Under the pieces are notes generated by a model, which saw only the letters and a program-made list of their open reading frames with translations, searched no databases and was not told the origin of the DNA. The translations under genes and the position numbers were made by a program. Source: Escherichia coli (GTDB lineage: Bacteria; Pseudomonadota; Gammaproteobacteria; Enterobacterales; Enterobacteriaceae). Taken from it: 64,000 nt of DNA. Of this stretch, positions 25,887-30,467 are shown piece by piece; the first letter of the stretch is position 1, and each line of letters begins with the position of its first letter. Location of the stretch: NCBI RefSeq assembly GCF_003019035.1, contig NZ_CP027447.1; one strand, 5' to 3'.

Positions 25887-26492
25887 ATGACGCTATACCA
25901 GATAAAACCGCTCTTTCAGTCGCTGTTAAGGCCGACGATGTTTTGGCTTAATAAGCACCATGTTACAGCGAATCACATCACTCTTGCTGCACTGGCGCTT
26001 TCTCTTCTTACCGGATTGCTGTTGATGTTGGTGGCACAACCCATCCTCTTTTTGCTATTGCCTATCGTGCTTTTTATCCGTATGGCGCTCAATGCGCTGG
26101 ATGGCATGATGGCGCGTGAGTGCAATCAGCAAACACGTCTTGGGGCGATTTTGAATGAAACTGGCGATGTTATTTCCGATATTGCGCTTTATTTACCGTT
26201 TTTATTTTTACCGGAAAGTAACGCATCACTCGTAATACTCATGTTATTTTGCACCATATTAACTGAGTTTTGCGGTTTACTCGCGCAGACGATTAACGGT
26301 ATTCGCAGTTATGCCGGTCCATTCGGCAAAAGCGATCGTGCGTTAATATTTGGGTTGTGGGGGCTGGCTGTTGCCATTTATCCACAGTGGATGCAATGGA
26401 ATAATCTTTTATGGAGCATTGCTTCAATTTTGCTTCTCTGGACTGCGATTAATCGTTGTCGAAGTGTGCTCCTGATGAGTGCTGAAAGATAA
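25887..26492 (+). CDS. ynbA: CDP-alcohol phosphatidyltransferase-family membrane protein YnbA, 201 aa
   Basis: ORF track frame, ATG start; motif DGMMAR-x8-G-...-D-x3-D resembling the CDP-alcohol phosphotransferase signature. Confidence 0.85.
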   Translation: MTLYQIKPLFQSLLRPTMFWLNKHHVTANHITLAALALSLLTGLLLMLVAQPILFLLLPIVLFIRMALNALDGMMARECNQQTRLGAILNETGDVISDIALYLPFLFLPESNASLVILMLFCTILTEFCGLLAQTINGIRSYAGPFGKSDRALIFGLWGLAVAIYPQWMQWNNLLWSIASILLLWTAINRCRSVLLMSAER

Positions 26493-27388
26493 TGCTGGAA
26501 AAATCTCTGGCAACACTTTTCGCGTTGTTAATTTTAGCAACGCTGATAAACCGTTTTCTGATATGGCGGTTACCGGAGGGAAAAGGGGGTGAGGTTACAT
26601 TACGTATTCGTACCTGGTGGGGCATCGTCATTTGTTTTTCACTGGTGATTTCAGGTCCACGCTGGATGACGTTGACGTTTTTTGCGCTGATAAGTTTTCT
26701 GGCATTGAAAGAATATTGTACGCTTATATCCGTACATTTTCCGCGTTGGTTATATTGGGGTATTCCTCTTAACTATTTGCTTATTGGTTTTAATTGCTTT
26801 GAGCTGTTTCTGTTATTTATACCTTTGGCTGGGTTTCTGATATTAGCCACATGGCGAGTTTTAGTGGGTGACCCCTCCGGTTTTCTGCATACCGTGAGCG
26901 CCATTTTTTGTGGCTGGATAATGACCGTTTTCGCCTTGAGTCATGCCGCCTGGTTATTAATGTTGCCAACCACAAATATCCAGGGCGGGGCGTTACTGGT
27001 GTTATTTCTTTTGGCATTAACCGAGTCAAACGATATTGCACAGTATTTATGGGGAAAATCCTGCGGCAGAAGAAAAGTGGTCCCTAAAGTCAGCCCGGGA
27101 AAAACATTGGAAGGTCTGATGGGCGGCGTAATCACCACCATGATTGCGTCACTGATTATTGGACCGTTGCTGACACCGCTAGATACATTACAGGCATTAT
27201 TAGCGGGTTTGTTAATTGGTATTAGTGGTTTTTGCGGCGATGTAGTGATGTCAGCCATCAAACGAGATATTGGTGTTAAAGATAGTGGAAAACTATTACC
27301 AGGACATGGCGGACTCCTTGACAGGATTGACTCATTAATTTTCACCGCTCCGGTATTTTTTTATTTTATTCGCTACTGCTGTTACTGA
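26492..27388 (+). CDS. ynbB: Phosphatidate cytidylyltransferase (CdsA)-like membrane protein YnbB, 298 aa
   Basis: ORF track; TAATG overlap with ynbA; CdsA C-terminal signature SAIKRDIGVKDSGKLLPGHGGLLDRIDS. Confidence 0.88.
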   Translation: MLEKSLATLFALLILATLINRFLIWRLPEGKGGEVTLRIRTWWGIVICFSLVISGPRWMTLTFFALISFLALKEYCTLISVHFPRWLYWGIPLNYLLIGFNCFELFLLFIPLAGFLILATWRVLVGDPSGFLHTVSAIFCGWIMTVFALSHAAWLLMLPTTNIQGGALLVLFLLALTESNDIAQYLWGKSCGRRKVVPKVSPGKTLEGLMGGVITTMIASLIIGPLLTPLDTLQALLAGLLIGISGFCGDVVMSAIKRDIGVKDSGKLLPGHGGLLDRIDSLIFTAPVFFYFIRYCCY

Positions 27389-27403
27389 AGGAAAACAGAG
27401 AAA

Positions 27404-29161
27404 ATGGAAAATTCACGCATCCCTGGGGAGCATTTTTTTACCACCAGTGATAATACAGCGTTGTTTTATCGGCACTGGCCCACTTTACTGCCAGGGGCGA
27501 AAAAGGTCATCGTCTTATTTCATCGCGGTCATGAACATTCTGGTCGTCTACAACATATCGTTGATGAACTGGCGATGCCAGATACTGCTTTTTATGCCTG
27601 GGATGCCCGAGGGCATGGACAAACTTCGGGGCCGCGTGGTTATAGTCCGTCTCTTGCGCGTTCAGTGCAGGATGTCGATGAATTTGTCCGTTTTGCTGCC
27701 AGCGGCAGCCAGGTCGGACTGGAAGAGGTGGTTGTGATCGCGCAAAGCGTCGGCGCAGTGATGGTTGCTACATGGGTTCATGATTATGCGCCTGCTATTC
27801 GCGGGCTGGTGCTGGCTTCTCCGGCCTTTAAGGTTAAATTGTATGTGCCGCTGGCACGTCCTGCGCTGGCGTTATGGCATCGTCTGCGTGGTCTGTTTTT
27901 TATTAATTCCTATGTGAAAGGACGCTATTTGACCCACGATCGGCAACGGGTGGCGAGTTTCAATAATGATCCGCTGATCACACGGGCGATTGCCGTTAAT
28001 ATCTTGCTCGATCTTTATAAAACGTCTGAACGTATTGTTAGCGATGCGGCGGCGATTACGCTCCCCACGCAACTTCTGATATCAGGCGATGACTATGTGG
28101 TGCATCGTCAACCGCAGATTGATTTTTATCAGAGATTACGTAGCCCTCTGAAAGAGCTGCATCTGCTGCCAGGCTTTTATCACGACACGTTGGGTGAAGA
28201 GAACAGGGCGCAGGCATTTGAAAAAATGCAAAGCTTTATTAGTCGTTTATATGCTAACAAGTCACAAAAATTTGATTATCAGCATGAAGACTGCACAGGA
28301 CCATCAGCGGATCGATGGCGGCTACTTTCTGGTGGACCCGTGCCATTATCGCCGGTTGATTTGGCGTATCGCTTTATGCGTAAGGCGATGAAATTGTTCG
28401 GGGCGCACTCTGCGGGCCTGAATCTCGGAATGAGCACCGGCTTTGATTCAGGCAGTTCGCTGGATTATGTCTATCAAAATCAACCGCAAGGTAGTAACGC
28501 ATTCGGGCGTTTAGTCGACAAAATCTACCTGAACAGTGTTGGCTGGCGCGGTATTCGCCAGCGCAAAACCCATTTACAAATACTGATTAAACAAGCCGTT
28601 GCCGATCTCCACGCCAAAGGTTTAGCCGTCCGCGTGGTTGACATTGCCGCAGGGCATGGGCGCTATGTACTGGATGCGCTGGCAAACGAGCCTGCCGTAA
28701 GCGATATTTTGTTACGTGATTACAGCGAGTTAAATGTTGCACAGGGGCAAGAGATGATTGCTCAACGGGGAATGTCTGGGCGGGTGCGTTTTGAACAGGG
28801 CGATGCGTTTAACCCGGAGGAACTCAGCGCGTTAACTCCGCGGCCTACGCTGGCGATTGTCTCTGGCCTGTATGAGCTTTTTCCCGAAAATGAGCAGGTA
28901 AAAAACTCCCTCGCAGGTCTTGCCAATGCCATCGAACCGGGTGGCATTCTCATCTACACCGGGCAGCCGTGGCACCCACAACTGGAGCTGATTGCCGGGG
29001 TGTTAACCAGTCATAAAGATGGTAAACCGTGGGTAATGCGCGTGCGTTCGCAAGGGGAGATGGATTCGCTCGTGCATGATGCCGGATTCGATAAATGCAC
29101 ACAACGGATTGATGAATGGGGTATTTTTACGGTTTCGATGGCGGTGCGTCGTGATAACTGA
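27404..29161 (+). CDS. ynbC: Two-domain protein YnbC: N-terminal alpha/beta hydrolase, C-terminal SAM methyltransferase-like, 585 aa
   Basis: ORF track; AQSVG nucleophile-elbow-like motif; [11 protein letters not shown] methyltransferase motif I-like. Confidence 0.85.
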
Positions 29162-30467
29162 ACGCCGGAACGTATTGCTACAAGGAGCTGGCTGGTTATT
29201 GTTGCTGGCCCCGTTTTTCTTCTTCACCTATGGATTTCTTAATCAGTTCACCGCGACTAAGGATCTTAACAACCATGATATCCCCAGTCAGGTATTCGGT
29301 TGGGAAACGGCGATCCCTTTTCTTCCCTGGACTATTTTGCCTTACTGGAGTCTGGATCTTTTATATGGATTTTCGCTGTTCGTTTGTAGCTCGACATTTG
29401 AGCAGCGCCGTCTGGTCCACCGGCTTATTCTGGCAACGGTAATGGCCTGCTGCGGTTTTTTTCTCTATCCGCTGAAGTTTAGTTTTATCCGTCCTGAAGT
29501 GAGTGGGGTGACAGGATGGTTATTTTCGCAACTTGAATTGTTTGATCTGCCTTATAACCAGTCTCCTTAGCTGCATATTATTCTCTGCTGGCTACTTTGG
29601 CGTCACTTTCGTCAGCATCTGGCTGTGAGGTGGCGTAAAGTCTGCGGCGGATGGTTTTTACTCATCGCCATTTCGACGCTAACGACCTGGCAGCATCATT
29701 TTATTGATGTCATCACAGGGCTGGCGGTAGGTATGTTAATTGACTGGATGGTGCCCGTAGACCGTCGTTGGAATTATCAGAAACCTGATCAACGTCGAAT
29801 CAAAATAGCACTGCCATATGTCGCAGGCGCGTGCTCGTGCATTGTGTTGATGGAGCTAATGATAATGCTTCAGTTATGGTGGTCAGTCTGGTTATGTTGG
29901 CCAGTATTATCGCTATTCATTATTGGCCGTGGGTACGGTGGGCTTGGCGCGATAACAACAGGTAAAGATAGTCAGGGGAAACTCCCGCCCGCCGTTTACT
30001 GGCTGACATTGCCATGGCGCATCGGGATGTGGCTGTCTATGCGTTGGTTTTGTCTTCGCCTTGAGCCAGTGAGCAAAATTACTGCTGGTGTTTATTTAGG
30101 GGCGTTTCCACAACATATTCCGGCACAGAATGCGGTTCTGGACGTCACCTTTGAATTCCCTCGCGGACGAGCCACAAAAGATCAACTCTATTTTTGTGTA
30201 CCGATGCTGGATCTGGTGGTTCCGGAAGAGGGGGAGCTCCGACAGGCCGTGGCGATGTTGGAAACATTACGCGAAGAGCAAGGCGGCGTTCTGGTCCATT
30301 GCGCGTTGGGATTATCGCGCAGTGCGCTGGTGGTGGCGGCATGGCTGTTATGTTACGGACATTGTAAAACCGTTGATGAAGCGATTAGTTATATTCGAGC
30401 CAGACGCTCGCGGATTGTGCTTAAGGAAGAGCACAAAGCGATGCTGAAATTATGGGAAAACAGGTAA
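29076..30467 (+). pseudogene. ynbD: YnbD-like PAP2 membrane phosphatase fused to a dual-specificity phosphatase domain, interrupted by an in-frame TAG at 29568-29570; true start uncertain
   Basis: ORFs 29076-29570 and 29625-30467 are in the same frame with a single TAG between them; the stop sits in SP*LH (PAP2 PSGH-like motif); downstream HCALGLSRS is a CX5R phosphatase motif. Confidence 0.65.

Follow-up and report, generated by a model that had tools for sequence, protein, structure and literature searches.

Among the known systems close to the ynbABCD operon of Escherichia coli is the CdsA/YnbB-MPIase work of the Nishiyama laboratory, which concerns the same ynbB gene as the one considered here, a CTP_transf_1 family member with the complete C-terminal CdsA signature, and which handles YnbB on its own. 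YnbB makes CDP-diacylglycerol in vitro, too slowly for bulk phospholipid supply, its overproduction raises the level of the glycolipid MPIase or restores it upon CdsA depletion, and the protein has been called "dedicated to MPIase" in published work. In a ynbB knockout the MPIase level is unchanged and CdsA alone suffices, while human CDS1 and yeast Cds1 likewise restore MPIase; cold induction of ynbB has also been reported, and MPIase goes up under that condition.

The two-step phosphatidylinositol route of actinobacteria and archaea, in which a PIP or archaetidylinositol-phosphate (AIP) synthase is followed by a phosphatase, supplies the curated families and the solved structure nearest to YnbA, and ynbABCD too has a phosphatase gene, whose product could take a phosphate off the head group. 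The PgsA-PgpA/B/C pathway and mitochondrial PTPMT1 share with ynbABCD the succession from CDP-diacylglycerol through a CDP-alcohol transferase to a lipid phosphate phosphatase. The PGP phosphatase PTPMT1 has the dual-specificity-phosphatase fold, as does the C-terminal domain of YnbD.

The window analysed here is a 64,000-nucleotide stretch of the E. coli SCU-301 genome (contig NZ_CP027447.1), to which it is 100% identical. It carries at 25887-30467, on the plus strand like all stranded features below, four open reading frames that were proposed in an earlier note made from the sequence alone and are annotated in SCU-301 as ynbA (25887..26492, 201 aa, CDP-alcohol phosphotransferase family), ynbB (26492..27388, 298 aa, a CdsA paralogue of the CDP-diacylglycerol synthase family), ynbC (27404..29161, a fusion of alpha/beta hydrolase and class I SAM methyltransferase) and ynbD (29151..30467, a pseudogene for a PAP2 membrane domain with a C-terminal dual-specificity phosphatase). 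The operon is already catalogued and only partly characterised. The tight coupling described earlier agrees with the junctions, which are a TAATG with 1-nt overlap between ynbA and ynbB, a spacing of 15 nt between ynbB and ynbC, and either a 13-nt gap or an 11-nt overlap between ynbC and ynbD, set by the ynbD start used. A sequence scan found no excess of internal promoter-like or terminator-like sites within the operon, and profile searches, which could have reassigned the domains to unrelated families, kept the earlier domain calls for all four proteins, each being backed by Pfam, albeit weakly for the PAP2_3 domain of YnbD (3e-4). The reading of ynbABCD as one tightly packed unit of lipid-enzyme families is supported. 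Between the convergent ynbD and azoR genes lies a perfect 11-bp hairpin, GATGTGGACTG / CAGTCCACATC, with an 8-nt loop (30477..30506), which was missed by the terminator scan because it is without a U-tract.

[quoted passage not shown] We infer a candidate BglJ-RcsB site in TATTCTGA (25795..25802), which fits the wwTTCykA core of the motif (PMC3950696) and sits in a block conserved across all four E. coli lineages aligned. The inverted repeat pointed out earlier in this region, CCTGACGG / CCGTCAGG (25766-25773 / 25834-25841), is indeed present but has no support as a functional element: it is no more than chance would give, an 8-mer inverted repeat being expected in about 17-19% of 170-nt segments, and it is not conserved among E. 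coli lineages, since K-12 and O157 carry CCTGACAG as left arm (a mismatch) and UTI89 lacks the left arm and has a mutated right arm. In the whole region there are four 8-mer inverted-repeat pairs where 0.25 are expected; the RNA fold z-score is -1.65, and Rfam gives no match to the region.

YnbA matches CDP-OH_P_transf (PF01066, 5e-9), its best NCBIfam model is archaetidylinositol-phosphate synthase (75.5 bits against a cut-off of 180), it scores 49.6 bits with the PIP synthase model (cut-off 170) and only 29 bits with the pgsA model (cut-off 109), and its best PDB match is the mycobacterial PIP synthase 6h53. The alignment to 6h53 reveals a variant signature, N69-x2-D72-G-x2-A-R-x8-G86-x3-N90-x3-D94-V95-x2-D98 (26091..26180), in which N69 aligns with D1 and N90 with D3. 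The letters of the motif DGxxAR...G...DxxxD reported in the earlier note are therefore present, but its canonical reading does not stand, as asparagine takes the place of two of the four signature aspartates and the supposed "DxxxD" consists of D4 and the residue four positions on. The two substitutions occur in 78/78 YnbA orthologues, all of which also have V, I or L after D4 and never arginine, whereas in MtPgsA1 the arginine after D4 is crucial for inositol phosphate. Judged by sequence, with scores below every curated cut-off and V/I/L after D4, YnbA is an equivalog of neither PIP synthase nor PgsA, and the two asparagines might alter or reduce its transferase chemistry.

YnbB matches CTP_transf_1 (PF01148) over its full length (9e-69) and scores 111 with the CdsA equivalog model, below the cut-off of 385; the full CdsA C-terminal signature claimed for it can be read in the translation as SAIKRDIGVKDSGKLLPGHGGLLDRID. 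Its N-terminal half is unrelated to CdsA but is shared by cluster-linked orthologues up to those of Pseudomonas; the partners of these orthologues are YnbA, YnbC and YnbD and not any glycan genes. The earlier statement that no product had been assigned holds for the operon as a whole, for which none is described in the searched literature, but not for YnbB, whose CDP-diacylglycerol synthesis and link with MPIase are published.

YnbC matches Hydrolase_4 (1e-67; residues 32-266, nt 27497-28201) and Methyltransf_20 (1.5e-151; residues 275-582, nt 28226-29149). PDB matches of the N-terminal domain are monoacylglycerol lipases (2e-15), such as Rv0183 and human MGLL, whose Ser-Asp-His triad is kept in YnbC as the conserved Ser115, Asp230 and His260; unlike these enzymes, the YnbC hydrolase is fused to a Methyltransf_20 domain. 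The SAM motif DIAAGxG of the latter is conserved as well, its model has the class I fold (pLDDT 94.7), and the closest solved structure is 3ocj, an uncharacterised Bordetella protein.

YnbD matches DSPc (2.6e-26) in addition to PAP2_3. It may start at GTG 29151 (438 codons) or TTG 29175 (430 codons), both annotated among intact alleles, and orthologue N-termini favour the GTG. The gene, taken as intact in the earlier note, proved to contain a premature in-frame TAG at 29568-29570 (codon 132 in the 430-codon model, where other strains have TCG for Ser) and is flagged by PGAP as a pseudogene with an internal stop; the allele was found in 1/5426 complete E. coli genomes by exact 61-mer search. 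The TAG replaces the invariant Ser132 of the PAP2 C2 motif PSLH, and the phosphatase active-site loop HCALGLSRS (HCx5R-S, C-terminal domain, 30297..30323) lies downstream, so that the nonsense codon costs the protein the catalytic histidines of PAP2 and probably also its phosphatase domain. Among 31 orthologues R106-P107, S132-x-H134, H174-x3-D178 and C376-x5-R382 show no or next to no variation, S132 and H134 being strictly invariant; the structural model has a pLDDT of 93.2, and the C-terminal domain matches DUSPs in the PDB. The membrane domain is closer to sphingomyelin/IPC synthases than to PgpB and has the look of a head-group transferase rather than that of a simple phosphatase. Identity of YnbD to the sphingomyelin synthase / IPC synthase (AUR1) branch of the PAP2 superfamily is only 12-13%, none of these synthases has its PAP2 domain joined to a cytoplasmic Cys-phosphatase as in YnbD, and we know of no ceramide pathway in E. 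coli. In published work overexpressed YnbD complements neither C55-PP-phosphatase nor PGP-phosphatase mutants, so that a step that dephosphorylates the head group is hypothetical.

Phylogenetic co-occurrence, suggested in the earlier note as a check, upheld the linkage: in 80 species loci picked via YnbC similarity and rich in Pseudomonas, so that linkage is conditional and partly redundant, the YnbC homologue is accompanied by YnbA (80/80), YnbD (78/80), YnbB (66/80), a PlsC-type acyltransferase of family PF01553 (67/80) and a small membrane protein (55/80), in few and fixed gene orders. Pseudomonas, Variovorax and Cupriavidus are among the taxa that conserve the cluster; in clusters further removed YnbB and YnbC are still found together, accompanied by YnbA or the acyltransferase, and the most distant YnbC homologues have unrelated gene contexts. 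A natural YnbA-YnbC fusion protein with the same NxxDG...N...D motif exists, and together with the cross-species linkage it strongly backs functional coupling of ynbABCD. No inositol-phosphate synthase gene was found among the genes identified in two related clusters (L003 and L060). The earlier label "self-contained" for the route is open to doubt: the cluster comprises six genes in most relatives, and E. coli is without the acyltransferase and the small membrane protein, of which no remnant was detected within the window.

From these data we propose, with moderate confidence, that ynbABCD is what remains in E. coli of a module conserved in proteobacteria that makes a minor membrane lipid out of CDP-diacylglycerol and tailors it, working on the cytoplasmic side of the inner membrane. 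YnbB would supply CDP-diacylglycerol to the translationally coupled YnbA, which may use its unusual metal site, with asparagines for two of the four signature aspartates, to move the phosphatidyl group onto an acceptor bound otherwise than inositol phosphate in PIP synthases. YnbC, fused to YnbA in one natural protein, would act right beside it and deacylate and/or methylate the product; the cytoplasmic Cys-phosphatase domain of YnbD might take off a phosphate, and its sphingomyelin/IPC-synthase-like PAP2 domain might then hydrolyse the phospho-head group or hand it on. The acyltransferase and small membrane protein added in most relatives would have been lost from E. coli. The earlier scheme of activation, transfer, dephosphorylation and methylation is plausible, the step order and the methyltransferase role being pure inference.

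The operon might instead be an auxiliary MPIase route used in cold or envelope stress, where the CDP-diacylglycerol of YnbB stays enzyme-bound, YnbA or YnbB couples it with GlcNAc-1-phosphate to GlcNAc-PP-diacylglycerol, and YnbC and YnbD trim or modify the product. The YnbB overproduction, CdsA depletion and cold-induction results speak for such a role, and a pyrophosphate-forming transfer to a sugar phosphate, unusual for a CDP-alcohol transferase, could fit the Asn/Asn site. We nevertheless regard it as unlikely: the ynbB knockout leaves MPIase unchanged, ynbA, ynbC and ynbD are unmentioned in the MPIase papers found, and MPIase is essential, yet about 15% of complete E. coli genomes are without the operon. 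Restoration by human CDS1 and yeast Cds1 makes the activity a general CdsA-family property and no signature of ynbABCD. The cluster also reaches Pseudomonas, Variovorax and Cupriavidus, whereas the MPIase glycan repeat is of the type of enterobacterial common antigen, to our knowledge confined to Enterobacterales.

Distribution and expression bear on a further, rather doubtful reading, that the E. coli operon is a cryptic relic in decay, normally silenced, deprived of two ancestral genes and without physiologically relevant product, the ynbD nonsense mutation private to SCU-301 being further decay. Beside the two missing genes and the very weak promoter, this would suit the low GC content of ynbA and ynbB (43-45%), the full operon being present in only 79% of complete genomes, with whole-operon absences, partial deletions and IS1/IS3 insertions in ynbA on record, and knockouts without growth phenotype; the ynbC polyphosphate phenotype is strain-specific, and no phenotype pinning down ynbA, ynbC or ynbD is reported in the searched literature. 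Despite values up to 0.2-0.3 in ynbB and ynbD, however, dN/dS within E. coli is 0.06-0.31 and well below 1 in all four genes (lineages diverged at dS of about 0.05-0.18), which places ynbABCD under purifying selection; no catalytic motif is damaged in the other strains examined, the complete operon is retained in four out of five genomes, and BglJ-RcsB activation, cold induction of ynbB and the reported ynbA upregulation in an acid condition argue for conditional use.

Cardiolipin-like synthesis and remodelling, a specific version of the main idea with YnbA transferring phosphatidyl from CDP-diacylglycerol to a lipid acceptor such as phosphatidylglycerol in the manner of eukaryote-type cardiolipin synthases, the YnbC lipase and PlsC-type acyltransferase remodelling acyl chains and the Cys-phosphatase in the role of PTPMT1, is improbable, for although the full-cluster families (CDS, CDP-alcohol transferase, dual-specificity phosphatase, alpha/beta-hydrolase lipase, PF01553 acyltransferase) are mirrored by the mitochondrial set Tam41/Cds1, Crd1, PTPMT1, Cld1 and tafazzin and YnbA is hydrophobic where PIP synthases have basic acceptor-binding residues, the clsABC triple null has no detectable cardiolipin and the pgpABC triple null is inviable, so that YnbA and YnbD do not supply these activities in laboratory conditions, YnbD fails to complement the pgp triple mutant, and the methyltransferase and SMS-like PAP2 domain are left unexplained.

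In the favoured reading of a lipid-tailoring module, the pathway in E. coli SCU-301 is truncated, at best ending at an intermediate, because ynbD is a pseudogene, and since the operon is missing or disrupted in many genomes, any function it has is dispensable. The E. coli ynbABCD operon is a reduced version of a six-gene cluster for membrane-lipid tailoring that is common among proteobacteria.

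The ynbABCD genes lie on the plus strand at 25887-30467, in the order ydbD (+), ynbA, ynbB, ynbC, ynbD (+), azoR (-), hrpA (+), and the segment 25700-30600 matches the E. coli SCU-301 chromosome (an isolate from the human rectum) at 100% identity, against 98.6% for the genomes that rank after it. The ATG of ynbB (26492-27388) overlaps the TAA of ynbA (25887-26492) as TAATG, ynbC (27404-29161) starts after a 15-nt gap, and ynbD, which ends at 30467, is given two starts by PGAP depending on the strain: GTG 29151 (438 codons, 11-nt overlap with ynbC), which is favoured by the orthologue N-termini, or TTG 29175 (430 codons). 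The tight coupling of the four genes described in the earlier note is borne out by the TAATG junction, the short gaps and the common strand, and its domain calls for all four proteins hold in Pfam and NCBIfam profile searches. A consensus scan returned no excess of promoter-like or terminator-like sites within the operon, and a promoter has been mapped upstream of ynbA; judged by junctions, strand, terminator scan and mapped promoter, ynbABCD is predicted to form a single operon. Between the convergent ynbD and azoR, positions 30477-30506 can form a hairpin whose 11-bp stem is perfect and whose loop has 8 nt; neither strand has a U-tract there, and the structure may mark the end of both transcripts. 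The GC content of ynbA and ynbB (25887-27388) and of ydbD (23404-25716) is 43–45%, that of ynbC and ynbD 49–51% and that of the window 49.7%; the low values would fit a segment that is silenced by H-NS or was acquired horizontally. Rfam at gathering thresholds gave no match in 25500-31400, which ruled out a known RNA element upstream of or inside the operon, and an anti-phage defence role was dropped after PADLOC returned no match for YnbA, YnbC, YnbD or the small protein Y of related clusters.

YnbC-like fusions are numerous (in a library clustered at 50% identity, 400 representatives reach E <= 1e-30), and a one-genome-per-species scan gave 80 loci with a YnbC homologue of 56–77% identity from Enterobacterales, Pseudomonas, many beta-proteobacteria, and one Bradyrhizobium. 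The earlier note had proposed the co-occurrence of the four genes as a check, and it is found: by tblastn over this sample, which was picked through YnbC and is rich in Pseudomonas, YnbA is present in 80/80 loci, YnbD in 78/80, and YnbB in 66/80. Two further genes accompany them, namely, a PF01553 PlsC-type acyltransferase of about 210 aa (X; 67/80 loci) and a small three-helix membrane protein of about 140 aa with an ERRxGALK motif (Y; 55/80 loci), which has no Pfam or NCBIfam match. Protein Y, absent from E. coli, follows ynbD in most related clusters, for example, at 11020-11427 of locus L003 and 11031-11474 of locus L060 (135–147 aa). The order A-C-D-Y-X-B occurs in 42 loci, and in 10 more without a detectable Y, in Pseudomonas and beta-proteobacteria; A-B-X-C-D-Y occurs in 9 loci, and in 2 without Y, in Citrobacter, Hafnia, Pantoea, and others; A-C-D(-Y) occurs in 12 loci, of Proteus, Providencia, Morganella, and Xenorhabdus together with L034, L038, L076, and L080, which are cut by contig ends. 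The E. coli order A-B-C-D equals A-B-X-C-D-Y minus X and Y, and no remnant of either was found within the 64-kb window. Thus, the lipid-enzyme set that was previously called a self-contained four-gene route is real, but most relatives add X and Y, which E. coli does not have. Judged by gene content and order, gamma- and beta-proteobacteria share this module as a conserved unit that is inherited together.

Other arrangements extend this set. In one metagenomic contig YnbA and YnbC form a single fused protein of 807 aa, with YnbD, X, and YnbB encoded after it, and distant YnbC homologues (40–42% identity) adjoin YnbA-YnbB with an extra O-methyltransferase, or YnbB-X. Another distant homologue has a patatin as its neighbour, and a CDS and a PAP2_3 protein are encoded close by on the other strand. 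The most distant homologue examined, at 33% identity, is surrounded by unrelated genes for fatty-acid synthesis. At locus L083 a 927-aa YnbC homologue (P0150; 6970-9753) with an unannotated N-terminal extension of ~370 aa has patatin, SDR, CDS, and a PAP2_3 protein of 592 aa as neighbours; the module may exist here in yet another form. Citrobacter sp. Cu233 carries two diverged cluster copies (L004, L012) differing in gene content, whose YnbC proteins are 77% and 66% identical to that of E. coli.

YnbB is the member with a published activity. It matches Pfam CTP_transf_1 at 8.9e-69 over model positions 2-263 of 264, and its translation carries the CdsA C-terminal signature, the PROSITE pattern S-x-I-K-R-x4-K-D-x-G-x2-L-P-x-H-G-G-L-x-D-R-I-D. 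Against the CdsA equivalog model it scores 111 bits (cut-off 385) with only the C-terminal half aligned, and it is therefore a paralogue, in agreement with the published view. The assertion that no product had been assigned has to be withdrawn for this gene: according to what PMC7018664 conveys of Sato et al. 2019, YnbB forms CDP-diacylglycerol from PA and CTP in vitro, and it is already linked to the glycolipid MPIase (membrane protein integrase). YnbB overproduction raises MPIase and restores it under CdsA depletion, while bulk phospholipid synthesis is not supported by YnbB. It is unlikely that the operon serves MPIase synthesis only, as these data might be read. The effect is seen only with overproduction, MPIase is unchanged in the ynbB knockout, CdsA alone suffices, MPIase is also restored by human and yeast CDS enzymes, the operon is dispensable, and the cluster is found in bacteria without enterobacterial common antigen. 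In the literature found no MPIase effect is reported for ynbA, ynbC, or ynbD. The published role as an MPIase back-up probably does not explain the place of YnbB in the cluster.

YnbA belongs to the CDP-alcohol phosphotransferases (Pfam PF01066, E = 5.3e-9, residues 27-175), with PIP synthases, CPT1/CEPT1, and PS synthases as PDB matches. The family signature D1xxD2G1xxAR...G2xxxD3xxxD4 carries four metal-binding aspartates (PMC6506517). In the alignment to the mycobacterial PIP synthase 6h53, YnbA reads N69-x2-D72-G-x2-A-R-x8-G86-x3-N90-x3-D94, so that D2, G1, A, R, G2, and D4 are kept, but D1 and D3 are Asn69 and Asn90 and the set of four aspartates is not present. The Asn/Asn pattern recurs in 78/78 YnbA orthologues from other species and in the fusion protein P0123, which marks it as a family trait of YnbA and not as decay. 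In PgsA1 the first Mg is held by D1, D2, and D3 and the second by D3 and D4, with D4 as the presumed base (PMC6506517); YnbA Asp94 aligns with D93 of the mycobacterial enzyme MtPgsA1 and is conserved in all orthologues, and YnbA thus has the base but a less charged metal site. Directly after D4, R94 of MtPgsA1 is crucial for activity and conserved in inositol-phosphate-using enzymes (PMC6506517), and this position is Val95 in E. coli YnbA and V/I/L in 78/78 orthologues. The NCBIfam scores are 75.5 bits for archaetidylinositol-phosphate (AIP) synthase (cut-off 180), 49.6 bits for PIP synthase (cut-off 170), and 29.2 bits for TIGR00560, the PGP synthase PgsA (cut-off 109.1). Because of these sub-threshold scores and the V/I/L residue YnbA is not a PIP synthase, an AIP synthase, or a PgsA equivalog, and the NCBIfam lead towards PIP synthase was ruled out by the cut-offs and the acceptor-site residues.

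YnbC combines a Hydrolase_4 domain (Pfam, 1e-67; monoacylglycerol lipases in PDB at 2e-15) with a Methyltransf_20 domain (1.5e-151). The hydrolase contains a nucleophile elbow, A-Q-S115-V-G, and the triad Ser115/Asp230/His260, of which D230 and H260 do not vary among 10 diverse homologues and S115 hardly varies. The second domain is a predicted class I SAM-dependent methyltransferase on the basis of its AlphaFold model (pLDDT 94.7, class I fold), motif I, and the strand-2 acidic residue; D142, A144, G146, and D168 (domain numbering) are invariant, and Foldseek matched the model with probability 1.0 to many SAM methyltransferases. The nearest solved structure is 3ocj (TM 0.64), an uncharacterised Bordetella structural-genomics protein, and the other matches are generic small-molecule methyltransferases (TM ~0.45–0.5), so that the substrate is unreadable from the fold and naming it in this way was dropped. 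A literature search on the Methyltransf_20 family gave no result. A transposon insertion in ynbC was described to cause polyphosphate accumulation, in one strain background only.

The last gene is broken in SCU-301. An in-frame TAG at 29568-29570, overlooked in the earlier note, replaces the TCG (Ser) of other strains, and PGAP lists ynbD among the pseudogenes on account of an internal stop. The change is strain-private: a 61-nt query centred on the codon has an exact match in only 1/5426 complete E. coli genomes and a differing sequence in 4603 others. A sequencing error may also be the source of the TAG. The affected residue, Ser132 in the 430-codon numbering, is the serine of the PAP2 C2 motif PSLH and does not vary among 31 orthologues. 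Intact alleles retain C1 R106-P107, C2 S132-L-H134, and C3 S167...H174-x3-D178, all invariant or nearly so in orthologues, that is, the PAP2 pattern of C1 K/R...RP, C2 PSxH, and C3 S-x6-H-x3-D, which the window allele does not encode. Since its C2 serine codon is TAG, motifs C2 and C3 fall outside the translated protein, and the truncated YnbD would lose both catalytic histidines; the phosphatase domain could be obtained only via re-initiation, for example, at GTG 29625, which opens a 280-codon ORF. In the intact allele the PAP2_3 match is weak (3e-4) and the DSPc match strong (2.6e-26), and YnbD is recognised in the literature as the fourth E. coli PAP2 protein. Its C-terminal domain has the P-loop H-C-x5-R-(S/T), with C376...R382 invariant or nearly so in orthologues, an upstream general-acid Asp, and a PTP fold. 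Reading the substrate of this Cys-phosphatase from the fold was dropped, because the search returned only generic DUSPs, PTPMT1 being one among many. As a practical caution, SCU-301, whose operon is disrupted in its last gene, would be the wrong strain for seeking the operon product.

Of 5426 complete E. coli genomes, 4275 contain the full region at >= 80% coverage and 4604 contain the ynbD segment; in ~15% of genomes the whole operon is missing and the azoR flank is the sole match, while other strains carry partial deletions removing ynbA-ynbB or IS1/IS3 insertions in ynbA (genomes H12, H54, and H69-H71). Such losses and the pangenome pattern fit a decaying cryptic operon; however, the pairwise dN/dS values between five lineages (ynbA 0.06–0.19, ynbB 0.10–0.31, ynbC 0.12–0.24, ynbD 0.09–0.30) indicate selection that is purifying, though not tight, and decay seems quite improbable. 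Compared with locus L002 (TCM3e1), the window shows mosaic divergence, with identical ynbA, ynbB dS 0.12, and ynbD dS 0.012, which suggests recombination breakpoints inside the operon.

The inverted repeat reported upstream of ynbA (8-mer arms 25766-25773 and 25834-25841) is present, but it is neither conserved nor above chance level. Its 22-nt extension is merely 73% complementary, a lone 8-mer repeat is expected by chance in about one sixth of such segments, the RNA fold compared with shuffles is not unusual (z = -1.65), K-12 and O157 have a mismatch in the arms, and UTI89-type strains have an altered right arm; a role as operator was therefore rejected. The whole 170 nt of 25717-25886 contain four 8-mer inverted-repeat pairs, one 9-mer being counted twice, against 0.25 expected in shuffles (p ~0.01), none of them individually conserved or significant. 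UTI89-type strains lack ydbD at this place, so that they are homologous to the window only from 25788 onwards. The 770-aa YdbD protein is annotated as "DUF2773 domain-containing bactofilin" and is missing upstream of ynbA in those strains (window 23404-25787 against locus L094), where pdxI lies directly upstream of ynbA. Two blocks are conserved in four E. coli lineages, CTTGATATATTC(T/C)GAATTT and GGAATTGATGCACCATAG; within the first, TATTCTGA (25795-25802) matches the wwTTCykA core of the BglJ-RcsB motif. The ynbA promoter depends on an activator, as far as PMC3950696 presents it on BglJ-RcsB, and the published site would sit on the first block with TATTCTGA. Further, ynbB was reported as cold-induced, and ynbA was 3-fold up in a study of an LEA-derived peptide enhancing E. 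coli acid tolerance.

Given the established slow CDP-diacylglycerol synthesis by YnbB, the activator-dependent promoter, the six co-inherited genes, and the conserved catalytic motifs, we lean towards the picture of a conserved module that builds and tailors a minor membrane lipid from CDP-diacylglycerol; for any specific product our confidence is much lower. YnbB would hand CDP-diacylglycerol to the translationally coupled YnbA, which would phosphatidylate an acceptor other than inositol phosphate. YnbC, as lipase and methyltransferase, may act beside YnbA at the cytoplasmic face, as the YnbA-YnbC fusion protein implies, and in most species the acyltransferase would re-acylate the product. 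The Cys-phosphatase of YnbD would remove a phosphate on the cytoplasmic side, and its sphingomyelin-synthase (SMS)-like PAP2 domain may hydrolyse or transfer the phospho-head group. In its fullest form, which we put forward tentatively and would not yet bet on, the six-gene ynb-type cluster, with E. coli ynbABCD as a reduced form, is a complete and undescribed pathway to a new class of proteobacterial membrane lipid or lipid-borne head-group donor, leading from a slow, channelling YnbB through the Asn/Asn metal centre of YnbA to methylation and acyl remodelling at the cytoplasmic face, after which the SMS-like PAP2 domain passes the phospho-head group to another envelope molecule. Cardiolipin-like synthesis and remodelling, suggested by analogy with mitochondria in the enzyme families involved, is very unlikely in view of the clsABC and pgpABC null phenotypes and the failed YnbD complementation.

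In the literature found no role is given to ynbA, ynbC, or ynbD, the operon is not treated as a pathway, and the enzyme combination of the cluster was not found described. The genes are already catalogued, one of them with a published activity, and head-group chemistry that depends on CDP-diacylglycerol is a known kind; relative to the literature found, what is new is the pathway, its descent from a six-gene cluster, and the variant active site of YnbA. The phospholipid metabolism of E. coli is usually regarded as fully mapped. The operon adds to it a second CDP-diacylglycerol synthase, a second CDP-alcohol transferase, a fourth PAP2 enzyme, and a lipase-methyltransferase. This makes it a well-posed known unknown and not a surprise, with the question now sharper: E. 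coli holds four of six genes, and the active site of YnbA is altered family-wide.
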